From the IMG/VR virus record IMGVR_UViG_2734482790_000002: a DNA stretch of 45,103 nucleotides. One strand, 5' to 3'. Every line of letters begins with the position of its first letter. The first letter of the stretch is position 1. The notes under the pieces were generated by a model. The model was not told the origin of the DNA. It worked only from the letters and a program-made list of their open reading frames with translations, and searched no databases. This DNA is from a virus. Its lineage: Duplodnaviria > Heunggongvirae > Uroviricota > Caudoviricetes. Position numbers and translations under genes: made by a program. Below, one piece after another: positions 16,788 through 18,476 of this stretch.

Positions 16788-16985
16788 ATGCTAAAACAGC
16801 AGGATATGACCGAAACAGCCAGAGTGGTGTTTAATGAATTAAGCGTCACTGAACCGGCAACAGTTGGGGAAATTGCGCAGAATACTTACCTTTCACGCGA
16901 ACGCTGCCAGTTAATACTGACCCAGCTTGTTATGGCGGGTCTGGCAGATTATCAGTTCGGTTGTTACAGACGCCTTCCGCAGTGA
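16788..16985 (+). CDS. small HTH-like protein (65 aa), possible regulator
   Basis: internal Met start; TVGEIAQNTYLSRERCQLILTQLVMAGL resembles a helix-turn-helix; directly upstream of the methyltransferase. Confidence 0.4.
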   Translation: MLKQQDMTETARVVFNELSVTEPATVGEIAQNTYLSRERCQLILTQLVMAGLADYQFGCYRRLPQ

Positions 16986-17135
16986 AGGCTTTTTACTTTG
17001 TGGTAATGGGCGGCTGGTGGGTGTTAGCGGCACCTGCCAGCCATCTGCTCATGAATCGGGGTCACAAGCAAACCTCAGGCCCATCCGCTTTGCGCAAAAG
17101 CGGTATGAGCCTATCAGAGAAGTGCTTATTGATCT

Positions 17136-18182
17136 ATGGTTGATACTGTAAAAATATCCAGTTGTGAGTTAATCAACACCGATTGCCTGGAATTTATCCA
17201 GACCTTATCGGAAAACTCTGTCGATCTTATAGTCACAGACCCGCCATATTTTAAAGTGAAGCCCGAGGGCTGGGATAACCAGTGGAAGGGCGACGATGAT
17301 TACCTGAAATGGCTGGACCAGTGTCTGGCTCAGTTCTGGCGGGTACTGAAGCCTGCCGGAAGTCTTTACCTGTTTTGTGGTCATCGCCTGGCATCTGATA
17401 TCGAAATCATGATGCGTGAGCGCTTTAATGTGCTGAACCACATTATCTGGGCGAAGCCGTCCGGACGCTGGAACGGGTGCAACAAAGAAAGCCTGCGGGC
17501 GTATTTCCCGGCAACAGAGCGCATTCTGTTTGCCGAACATTATCAGGGGCCATACCAGCCAAAAAATGATGGCTATGCGGCAAAGGAGCGCGAGCTTAAA
17601 CAACACGTCATGGCCCCGCTGATTTCTTACTTCCGTGATGCGCGTGAATCACTGGGGATAACGTCCAAACAGATAGCGGAAGCCACCGGAAAGAAAAACA
17701 TGGTGTCGCACTGGTTTGGTACCTGTCAGTGGCAGTTACCGAACGAAGCTGATTACAGAAAACTGCAGGCGCTGTTCGCGTGTGTTGCAGAAGAAAAGCA
17801 CCAGCGTGGGGAGCTGGCAACGCCACACCAGCAACTGGTCAGCACATACAGTGAACTGAACCGGCAATATGCCAGTCTGCTTGAGGAATACAAATCTCTG
17901 CGGCGTTATTTTTCTGTATCGGCCGCCGTTCCTTATACGGACGTCTGGACGCATAAGCCCGTGCAGTATTATCCGGGTAAGCATCCCTGCGAAAAACCGG
18001 CGGATATGTTGCGTCAGATAATTTCTGCCAGCAGTCGTCCAGGCGATTTGGTCGCAGATTTTTTTATGGGGTCGGGGTCGACAATAAAAGCGGCACTGTC
18101 GCTGGGACGCAGGGCGATTGGCGTGGAACTGGAAGAGGAACGTTTTAATCAGACGGTCAGAGAAATAACGAAAGATTTTTAA
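17136..18182 (+). CDS. DNA methyltransferase (N6-adenine or N4-cytosine class), orphan
   Basis: 348 aa; motif IV DPPY near the N-terminus (SVDLIVTDPPY) and motif I (DFFMGSGST) near the C-terminus; no adjacent restriction endonuclease gene. Confidence 0.85.
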   Translation: MVDTVKISSCELINTDCLEFIQTLSENSVDLIVTDPPYFKVKPEGWDNQWKGDDDYLKWLDQCLAQFWRVLKPAGSLYLFCGHRLASDIEIMMRERFNVLNHIIWAKPSGRWNGCNKESLRAYFPATERILFAEHYQGPYQPKNDGYAAKERELKQHVMAPLISYFRDARESLGITSKQIAEATGKKNMVSHWFGTCQWQLPNEADYRKLQALFACVAEEKHQRGELATPHQQLVSTYSELNRQYASLLEEYKSLRRYFSVSAAVPYTDVWTHKPVQYYPGKHPCEKPADMLRQIISASSRPGDLVADFFMGSGSTIKAALSLGRRAIGVELEEERFNQTVREITKDF

Positions 18183-18399
18183 TTCAGTGATGATATAAGT
18201 TGTATATTTCTGATACAGATGTATACACATATTTAAAACTGAACACCAAATATATTTTTGATGTCTGAAAAACTGTCGTTAGTATTCTGACTGGTCCGGA
18301 AGACGGTTATTTTTGTGTTCACAGGGGCGTTACTATCGTCTGAAGGACCAGTGCTGGCTTTCCTGGTAATTCGTGTGATTCCGGAAGCCAGTACAGTAT

Positions 18400-18476
18400 G
18401 CGGGTATCGTATAATGGCCATTACCTCAGCTTTCCAGGCTGATGATGTGGGTTCGATTCCCGCCACCCGCTCTCCA
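18400..18476 (+). tRNA. tRNA-Gly(UCC)-like gene, possibly degenerate at the 3' end
   Basis: cloverleaf: acceptor gcgggta, D-arm gtat-aatggcca-ttac, anticodon arm tcagc-ttTCCag-gctga, T-arm gtggg-ttcgatt-cccgc; near-identical to E. coli glyT as I recall it; A7:C66 mismatch and 3' tail tCTCCA rather than CCA. Confidence 0.6.

Follow-up and report, generated by a model that had tools for sequence, protein, structure and literature searches.

A conserved leader RNA with two covarying folds upstream of an M.EcoGII-family methyltransferase gene in a lambdoid prophage

Introduction

How can a lysogen carry the gene of a toxic DNA methyltransferase without making the enzyme? The question is raised by a prophage segment that occupies positions 16,788 to 18,476 of a viral record of 45,103 nucleotides (nt; IMG/VR IMGVR_UViG_2734482790_000002), the whole of which we call the window. 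The segment holds a gene for a 65-amino-acid (aa) protein with a putative helix-turn-helix (HTH) fold, a DNA methyltransferase gene and a tRNA-Gly(UCC) gene. A sequence-only reading of the window had listed these features, and all of them were found where it had placed them. By its sequence the methyltransferase is a relative of M.EcoGII, a prophage-encoded beta-class enzyme of E. coli (349 aa) that methylates adenine whatever the sequence context. The discoverers of M.EcoGII reported the native gene to be silent in the lysogen and its constitutive expression to be deleterious, and they left the mechanism of control open (PMC5778455). The enzyme has since become a widely used reagent in chromatin footprinting, in MadID and in RNA methylation tools.

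Here we describe a conserved RNA that lies between the HTH and methyltransferase genes and for which two alternative folds both covary. We tentatively propose that this element of about 140 nt is an undescribed bistable cis-regulatory RNA that gates translation of M.EcoGII-family genes, so keeping a toxic enzyme off in lysogens, across the Enterobacterales. A covarying leader able to sequester the start region offers a concrete control mechanism for a gene of this family. If the proposal is true, the leader would account for how the methyltransferase stays off in lysogens and would add an RNA motif to the few known translational gates of phage anti-restriction genes, such as that of com-mom in phage Mu.

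Results and Discussion

A conserved RNA occupies the spacer

The window locus was compared with a set of 80 loci, one genome per species, whose methyltransferases are 59-87% identical relatives and whose hosts range from Escherichia to Proteus and Xenorhabdus. The stretch of about 150 nt between the HTH and methyltransferase genes is more conserved than the 65-aa protein itself; a structured RNA at this place did not figure in the sequence-only reading. The conserved part extends from 'TGTG..AATGGGCGG' to the methyltransferase ATG and measures 137-142 nt in 50 distinct versions, which were collected from Escherichia through to Proteus and Morganella. It extends to Proteus, whose flanking proteins show no more than 59-63% identity, and it is present in 13 loci that have no HTH gene.

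A covariance model of the leader, R1, was built from 46 sequences. It gives one match of 107-167 bits per intact leader, each ending at the methyltransferase ATG, and no other strong match in the 790 kb scanned. The spacers of Xenorhabdus and Photorhabdus are shorter (76-101 nt) and keep only GUGAAAUG followed by a P1-like hairpin; because the model scores them at 19-20 bits (E ~0.1), both genera were left out of the leader set. By blastn the leader occurs at 4390 places, spread over 2708 of 5426 complete E. coli genomes, and among 12 rows sampled across the blastn ranking each full-length match overlaps a gene annotated 'DNA-methyltransferase'. One E. coli strain, TK3046 (L005:1357-1456), carries an internal deletion between two CATCTGCT repeats that removes P2 and the GCCCA strand and lowers the leader to 64.5 bits; this copy could serve as a natural mutant for leader function.

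Positions 16999-17138 have no Rfam 15 match at gathering thresholds, and at E values up to 10 only chance-level matches appear (WLE3, CRISPR repeat, P26, TP73-AS1). No described RNA motif at this site was found in Rfam 15 or in the literature searched, although a description elsewhere is possible. The published work on M.EcoGII makes no mention of an upstream leader or of a small HTH gene (PMC5778455, PMC11551740), and the anti-sRNAs of Tree et al. are RNAs of 51-60 nt at a different spot in the accessory site. The leader is the sole element of the segment without a prior description in these sources: the gene pair and the enzyme are of known kinds, and the tRNA is a derived allele of a known phage tRNA.

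Two mutually exclusive folds both covary

Support for the folds was measured on a covariance-model-based alignment of 49 distinct sequences with a hand-built structure, the elements of which are given in Table 1. Fold 1 consists of a closing helix (UGGGC/GCCCA) with the hairpins P1, P2 and P3 and contains a three-way junction with invariant junction nucleotides. Ten of its pairs show compensatory changes on both sides, and 89% of the alignment cells are paired, a share that falls to 26-43% on sliding of the 3' partners. P1 and P3 are retained in fold 2, which adds the helices AUGGGC/GCUCAU and AGGCCCA/UGAGCCU. In addition the 11 nt immediately ahead of the AUG (GCUU..UGAUC) pair with GGUCA.AAGC, a stretch that overlaps the P2 3' strand, and this pre-AUG helix covers positions -13 to -3 relative to the start. 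Ten pairs of fold 2 are likewise doubly changed, and 92% of its cells are paired.

P2 and the pre-AUG helix cannot form together, yet both covary, and compensatory changes occur in P1 as well as in these two helices. For example, the pair at the foot of P2, whose 5' base has no partner in fold 2, is seen as CG (20 cases), UA (12), AU (8) and UG (4). The presence of G·U pairs indicates that the structure resides on the sense (mRNA) strand. Fold 2, in which the pre-AUG segment is paired, is the predicted minimum-energy structure in nine of nine homologs, and the gap to fold 1 averages 2.8 kcal/mol. In the raw MAFFT alignment the P1 loop was misaligned, so that RNAalifold detected the structure only in part (covariation term -0.47); the hand-built structure and realignment to the covariance model were needed for this reason.

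Several points weigh against reading the element as a translational switch. The closing helix of fold 1 is invariant and so gives no covariation test. The shuffle control of pair counts ignores phylogeny, and part of the signal could come from inherited haplotypes; most double changes are carried by a few clades, with many contributed by Proteus and Morganella. No clear Shine-Dalgarno sequence is seen in the methyltransferase start region. Which fold would be on and which off is taken from predicted energies only. Finally, leaders are alike in loci with and without the HTH gene (L032 compared with L029, L096 with L097), which, with the 17 loci that lack this gene (see below), argues against an obligatory partnership of HTH protein and leader.

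The three-way junction of fold 1 with its invariant nucleotides, the two alternative folds that involve the start region and the dependence of the encoded enzyme on S-adenosylmethionine (SAM) could together point to a riboswitch for a small molecule such as SAM or S-adenosylhomocysteine (SAH), the cofactor and product of the enzyme. However, no SAM, SAH or other riboswitch model matches the leader at E values up to 10, the leader is associated with a single gene class, and phage late genes have no obvious need for metabolite sensing. We consider a riboswitch very unlikely.

Conservation of the spacer might also reflect something other than RNA structure, namely a gene for a small peptide, a promoter or an operator, or the recent spread of one sequence. 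The window does contain an open reading frame (ORF) of 45 codons that starts from the invariant ATGGGCGG and whose end overlaps the methyltransferase ATG; the motif 'TGTGnAAAT' resembles an extended -10 element; and many leader copies are very similar to one another. In most homologs, however, the ORF is closed by a TAG at codon 8, and frame-breaking indels occur, on which grounds a peptide gene was rejected. The distance from TGTG to AAT varies, making a fixed -10 element in the spacer doubtful. Compensatory base changes and G·U pairs would not be expected under any of these explanations, and the conservation reaches Proteus in spite of the diverged flanking proteins. Taken together, we judge them most improbable, and we retain a structured leader as the preferred reading of the spacer. 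Transcription of the methyltransferase gene would either enter from pR' through the hairpin at 16972-16989 or start at TGTGGTAAT.

The methyltransferase is an orphan enzyme of the M.EcoGII family

The 348-aa product of the methyltransferase gene matches the Pfam family PF01555 (N6_N4_Mtase) over residues 29-340 (E=4e-45). Its motifs stand in beta-class order: VTDPPYF (residues ~33-39) lies near the N-terminus and FMGSGST (residues ~310-316) towards the C-terminus. Over its full length, including the middle (target recognition) region, 293 of 345 residues (~85%) are identical to M.EcoGII with 2 gap positions, a figure to be read with caution since the reference is the sequence in supplement file 5 of PMC11551740, which is machine-read and has evident optical character recognition errors. 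The same identity, 85%, is found to the enzyme of phage 1720a-02, which is in turn 93% identical to M.EcoGII and has been called 'very similar' to it (PMC5778455). With M.EcoGII and M.EcoGI, from a prophage of E. coli O104:H4 (PMC5778455), the window enzyme shares the motif order, a nearly equal length (348 compared with 349 aa), the location in a prophage and the lack of an endonuclease partner.

On the strength of these similarities we place the enzyme in the M.EcoGII/M.EcoGI family of non-specific adenine methyltransferases. The sequence-only reading had treated it as an enzyme of unknown specificity that called for motif prediction; the family placement makes this unnecessary, as the activity to be expected is methylation of adenine in any context. 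Work on the wider family agrees: all reconstructed ancestors tested methylated both DNA and RNA, and Anc291 and SUPREM (Anc284), the two ancestors checked for sequence motifs, showed none (PMC11551740), while homologs have been tabulated as 'nonspecific' and were undetectable in lysogen methylomes (PMC6602927). From M.EcoGII the window enzyme differs at 15% of its residues, several of them in the middle region; this copy is itself probably non-specific. Its likely role would be to hypermethylate phage DNA during lytic growth and thereby evade restriction. Since the family is silent in lysogens (PMC5778455, PMC6602927), methylome sequencing of the lysogen is expected to show nothing. We suggest that genes of this type be labelled M.EcoGII family (non-specific) in place of the generic 'DNA-methyltransferase'.

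The absence of a restriction partner, already remarked for this DPPY-type enzyme from the sequence, was borne out. No restriction endonuclease was found in the window, either by transfer of the annotation of the E. coli K99B prophage or by scanning the other ORFs with Pfam and PADLOC, and the methyltransferase is an orphan for this reason.

The upstream protein is a frequent but dispensable companion

In Pfam the 65-aa protein gives sub-threshold winged-HTH matches only: TrmB at 18 bits (cut-off 25.6), MarR_2, DprA_WH and HTH_24. Its AlphaFold (AF2) model shows three helices and a beta hairpin at a predicted local distance difference test (pLDDT) score of 61, and the best PDB folds returned by Foldseek are winged helices of the IclR, MarR, GntR and Z-alpha types, all at E>0.05; model and matches are usable for the fold class only. 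At this level the protein is predicted to be a winged-helix protein, 100% identical to L23 of phage phiP27, and not an Xre-type controller of a restriction-modification (R-M) system.

Controller (C) proteins are Xre-type HTH proteins, of the Pfam HTH_3/HTH_31 type, found in R-M operons together with an endonuclease, whose expression they delay; their own genes are preceded by palindromic C-box operators. The sequence-only reading had suggested that the 65-aa protein might act in this way, a suggestion that fails on three counts: the signals are those of a winged helix, an endonuclease is missing, and the protein is absent from 17 of 76 methyltransferase loci. Membership of the C proteins was rejected on the lack of any Xre/HTH_3 signal in Pfam, model or folds and of an endonuclease in the window or in the near-identical prophage. 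The small upstream gene should not be labelled an R-M controller.

In the locus set, 76 of the 80 loci have enough upstream DNA for the presence of the HTH gene to be judged. Homologs with 38-98% identity are present in 59 of them, starting 270-355 nt before the methyltransferase start, and in the other 17 none was found, profile search included. The linkage of the two genes is real and not obligatory: the HTH gene is a frequent, dispensable companion.

This linkage, tight and wide and kept at a fixed distance even where the proteins are only 38% identical, together with a predicted fold of DNA-binding type, would suit a controller-like transcription factor that sets transcription of the methyltransferase gene by binding to the DNA ahead of it. 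Against this stand the missing Xre/HTH_3 signal, the lack of an endonuclease to delay, the loci without the protein and the behaviour of P1, which is the only long inverted repeat in the spacer and is wholly rewritten between Proteus loci L099 and L100, although their HTH proteins are nearly identical. By this rewriting and the presence of G·U pairs, P1 behaves as an RNA helix rather than an operator for the HTH protein, and the leader as an HTH operator was rejected on the rewriting with near-constant HTH proteins. We regard a transcription factor of this kind as unlikely.

A closer parallel is offered by the com-mom operon of phage Mu, in which a small upstream ORF and a structured leader that occludes the start precede a late, toxic DNA-modification gene that serves to evade restriction (PMC6483171); occlusion of the start in the window is a prediction. 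By analogy, the winged-helix protein could bind the leader RNA and shift it towards the fold with a free start, as a translational activator like Com, in which case the toxic methyltransferase would be made only once its upstream partner had been translated. Beyond the shared architecture, non-specific methyltransferases lie at the mom position in Mu-like prophages (PMC3299994), and winged helices can bind RNA hairpins, as SelB does with SECIS; SelB is among the fold matches of the 65-aa protein. Furthermore, two HTH-less loci (L038 and L041) carry instead, about 70 nt upstream of the leader, a 79-aa protein with four-cysteine, zinc-ribbon-like CxxC...CPxC...CPxC pairs that recalls Mu Com. However, the 65-aa protein has neither sequence nor fold relation to Com, which is a zinc finger, and it has no zinc-binding cysteine/histidine cluster; a quarter of the loci lack it, with the leader unchanged; RNA binding is a conjecture by analogy; and the AF2 model is of low confidence. 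The Mu leader is also unrelated to the window leader in sequence and folds, and Mom and the enzymes of Mu-like prophages belong to other families than the window enzyme, the Mu-like ones being of the alpha class (PMC5778455). An activating role like that of Com seems to us unlikely.

A possible sequence of events

These observations allow us to outline how the bistable leader that we favour might operate. The HTH gene, leader and methyltransferase gene would form an anti-restriction module, in which the enzyme methylates adenines without sequence specificity. Such methylation is harmful if constitutive, and would have to be restricted to the lytic phase. Under the control of Q, late transcription from pR' would read through the hairpin at 16972-16989, as terminators of this operon would be passed only by Q-modified RNA polymerase. 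The leader would normally settle in the more stable fold 2, in which the 11 nt before the AUG pair with the 3' strand of P2 and translation would be off or low. In fold 1, P2 and the closing helix would form, leaving the start region free and translation on. Candidates for the trigger of the shift to fold 1 are co-transcriptional folding, the winged-helix protein and a ligand; the leader may be flipped by either of the latter two. The winged-helix protein may tilt the leader towards one fold, in the manner of Com at mom in Mu, or may regulate transcription.

The downstream tRNA-Gly is a derived allele

The tRNA that follows the methyltransferase gene would belong to a second module, independent of the first: a decaying phage tRNA cluster in which one tRNA has been reduced to a hairpin and from which tRNA-Gly would be excised out of the same late transcript. 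The tRNA is not part of the methyltransferase module, since in only 3 of the 80 loci is the methyltransferase gene followed by a tRNA. A scan of genome contigs for the junction of tRNA and leader returned no matches. No promoter of the tRNA's own passed the promoter scan, and a manual candidate, TTGATG-16-TAGTAT, matches at only 8 of 12 positions.

ARAGORN finds tRNA-Gly with anticodon UCC at 18400-18471/2, and the Rfam tRNA model scores it at 51.2 bits (gathering threshold 29). Near-identical copies are annotated by the PGAP pipeline as a 72-nt tRNA-Gly, not as a pseudogene. Both defects noticed from the sequence, an A7:C66 mismatch and a CTCCA tail, are present: the acceptor stem is not fully paired, with A7·C66 flagged as non-canonical in the Rfam alignment, and CCA does not directly follow the discriminator, as it does in chromosomal tRNA genes of E. 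coli, the end reading U73-CUCCA with a 2-nt insertion where sibling alleles have U73-CCA. The gene had been suggested to be a pseudo-tRNA or a processed variant, and the evidence is compatible with both.

A comparison of the window with 21 other copies of the same spacer revealed two alleles in identical flanks. Class 2, with 6 of the 22 copies, is canonical (C32, A7-U66, U73-CCA, 65.6 bits), as are the tRNA-Gly genes of the phages JLK-2012 and SerU-LTIIb. Class 1, with 16 of the 22 copies including the window, carries U32 (C32>U), A7·C66 (U66>C) and an additional CU before CCA, and scores 51-54 bits. Class 1 occurs with both of the haplotypes found upstream. Its other polymorphisms keep base pairs (U50·G64 or C50-G64, G52·U62). 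The window copy, alone among the 22, has AATGGCCATTACC instead of AATGGCTATTACC in the D-loop (around 18429).

The glycine identity set of the E. coli glycyl-tRNA synthetase consists of G1-C72, C2-G71, G3-C70, U73, C35 and C36. All of these nucleotides and the anticodon are intact in the window tRNA. It reads GGA and GGG, which make up 42-48% of the glycine codons of the prophage, and about a quarter of glycine codons in E. coli K-12. The gene belongs to a phage tRNA family that includes T4-like phages (83% identity). Judged from these sequence features it is a real phage-type tRNA gene in a derived allelic form.

The alternative, that tRNA-Gly is a non-functional pseudogene headed for the fate of the neighbouring remnant, is one that we take seriously without preferring it. 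Three derived changes separate class 1 from the canonical allele, and two of the three affect the acceptor end; class 1 scores 11-14 bits below its canonical sibling, which fits decay. So does the copy in PapRG-04-4 (L007:2719-2789), which has suffered a 1-nt deletion and a C72>U change in the acceptor 3' strand and drops to 36 bits. The adjacent tRNA has already decayed, and the window copy has its private D-loop change. However, a dying gene would hardly be expected to be the commoner allele, to occur with both upstream haplotypes, to keep base pairs in its other polymorphisms or to retain the anticodon and the whole glycine identity set; and a demand for GGA and GGG codons exists.

A route to maturation is also available. 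The CCA-less tRNA precursors of phage T4 are matured by RNase BN/Z and the CCA-adding enzyme. Like these, the window gene is a phage tRNA gene in E. coli with no CCA directly after the discriminator; unlike them, it has a CCA 2 nt out of register, at which exonucleolytic trimming might stop and leave a UCUCCA tail. Because E. coli RNase BN/Z removes non-CCA 3' ends (PMC7479834), maturation of tRNA-Gly by trimming and subsequent CCA addition is conceivable. The two alleles, set in identical flanks, amount to a small natural experiment that asks if a tRNA with its CCA shifted by 2 nt can be matured in E. coli.

A decayed tRNA and a second hairpin precede tRNA-Gly

The sequence-only reading had suspected a degenerate tRNA-like remnant just upstream that would not fold into a cloverleaf, and this was confirmed for 18353-18392. 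In fixed register, the 36 nt before tRNA-Gly match the 3' ends of the tRNA-Thr of JLK-2012 and the tRNA-Arg/Thr of SerU-LTIIb at 23 of 36 positions (binomial P ~1e-6). Free local alignment is weakly significant (P 0.003-0.07); the fixed-register test is the informative one. In both phages the matching Thr/Arg tRNAs precede a homologous tRNA-Gly. The segment now forms a 16-bp hairpin (HP2), has no cloverleaf fold and receives no tRNA call from ARAGORN or Rfam. By this sequence match it is the decayed 3' part of a Thr/Arg-type tRNA. In E. coli A10 (L010:2455-2523) the upstream Thr/Arg tRNA is an intermediate form with an internal deletion of the 3' half of the D-arm and the anticodon arm, and the downstream tRNA of that strain is annotated as Glu (anticodon UUC).

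Further upstream lies a hairpin, HP1, within a region of unusual folding stability (RNAfold z=-3.4 for 18283-18399). HP1 exists as two haplotypes with about 13 differing positions and alike folds, at -42.6 and -42.9 kcal/mol, and its inner stem shows fully compensatory A-U>G-C and C-G>U-A exchanges. HP1 as a second tRNA remnant was rejected, as its local alignments with seven phage tRNAs and with the spacer of A10 were not significant (P>0.1).

Setting in the late operon

The window is a nearly complete lambdoid prophage that extends from the integrase gene (545-1663) to the tail fibre genes. The K99B prophage of E. coli, which has a PGAP annotation, is colinear with it, the two being 99.96% identical over 7898-21101. 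As a whole the region is probably best explained as an accessory ('moron') segment in the Q-dependent late operon of a phiP27/SfV-like lambdoid prophage. The late operon has the order Q, a 237-aa membrane ORF, the 65-aa ORF, methyltransferase, tRNA, a non-coding stretch of about 470 nt, two holins and a GH108 endolysin (Table 1). In other prophages the slot between Q and the HTH gene is variable and holds a CPBP protease, a GIY-YIG nuclease or nothing. A hairpin equivalent to that at 16972-16989 stands ahead of the leader in many of the listed loci, with and without the HTH gene.

Table 1. Features of the late-operon segment and elements of the leader RNA (positions in the window)
Feature	Position	Strand	Basis or remark
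Q antiterminator gene	14974..15645	+	PF06323 Phage_antiter_Q, E=7e-90; defines late-operon start
237-aa predicted membrane protein between Q and HTH gene	15901-16614	+	no Pfam or PADLOC match
65-aa winged-helix protein gene (predicted fold), homolog of phiP27 L23 and SfV orf47	16788..16985	+	ORF from ATG 16788 to TGA 16985
Terminator-like hairpin and T-run over HTH stop codon, directly 5' of leader	16972..16989	+	consensus scan
Conserved structured leader RNA of methyltransferase gene	16999..17138	+	conservation, covariance model, covariation
Leader 5' elements	AUGGGC 17006-17011; P1 17012-17023/17031-17042; P2 17046-17053/17063-17070	+	model-based alignment
Leader 3' elements	GCCCA 17079-17083; P3 17085-17091/17097-17103; UGAGCCU 17106-17112; AUG 17136	+	model-based alignment
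Pre-AUG segment	17123-17134	+	pairs with 17060-17070 in alternative fold
Orphan beta-class N6-adenine DNA methyltransferase gene, M.EcoGII family (by sequence)	17136..18182	+	PF01555, E=4e-45; M.EcoGII identity
Hairpin HP1 in tRNA leader	18290..18352	+	RNAfold
Hairpin HP2, decayed Thr/Arg-type tRNA remnant (acceptor strands and T-arm region)	18353..18392	+	fixed-register match
tRNA-Gly(UCC) gene, derived allele: body 18400-18471 (through U73), CUCCA 18472-18476	18400..18476	+	ARAGORN, Rfam
Three terminator-like hairpins, each followed by a T-run	18758-18776, 18798-18815, 18909-18924	+	consensus scan

The order Q, HTH gene, methyltransferase gene and lysis genes is common to phiP27 (L23-L24), SfV (orf47-orf48) and mEp460 (gp52-gp53) and to many Stx2 phages, the Stx2a, Stx2c and Stx2d phages included, and DNA identity across the gene pair is about 91%. 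What follows the pair differs: ileZ, argO and stx2e in phiP27, directly the holin in SfV and mEp460, and in the window a tRNA remnant and tRNA-Gly with no toxin. tRNAs occupy the same late-operon position, after Q or the methyltransferase gene and before the lysis genes, at other accessory sites, as ileZ-argN-argO in Stx phages, Asn-Thr-Gly in JLK-2012 and Arg/Thr-Gly in SerU-LTIIb. The tRNA-Gly(UCC) genes at these lambdoid sites are homologous to that of the window at 86-90%. Unlike the other sites, the window has an upstream tRNA that is now a hairpin and a Gly gene with U32, C66 and a displaced CCA.

The non-coding stretch between the tRNA and the start of the holin ORF at 18950 (18477-18949) holds no Rfam family at threshold; in other lambdoid prophages convergent anti-sRNA genes are located in this region (PMC4104026). 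Elsewhere in the window, the early-right region carries a RelE/ParE-ParD type II toxin-antitoxin pair on the minus strand (12590-13215), according to the transferred K99B annotation. An 823-aa early-left protein (1963-4434, minus strand) has a C-terminal Rv2179c-like 3'-5' exoribonuclease domain (E=8e-68) behind 640 N-terminal residues with no assignment. A full-length match to Rfam RF02111 (IS009 sRNA; 223.7 bits) lies on the plus strand at 44865-45063, within a tail fibre assembly gene (44522-45103).

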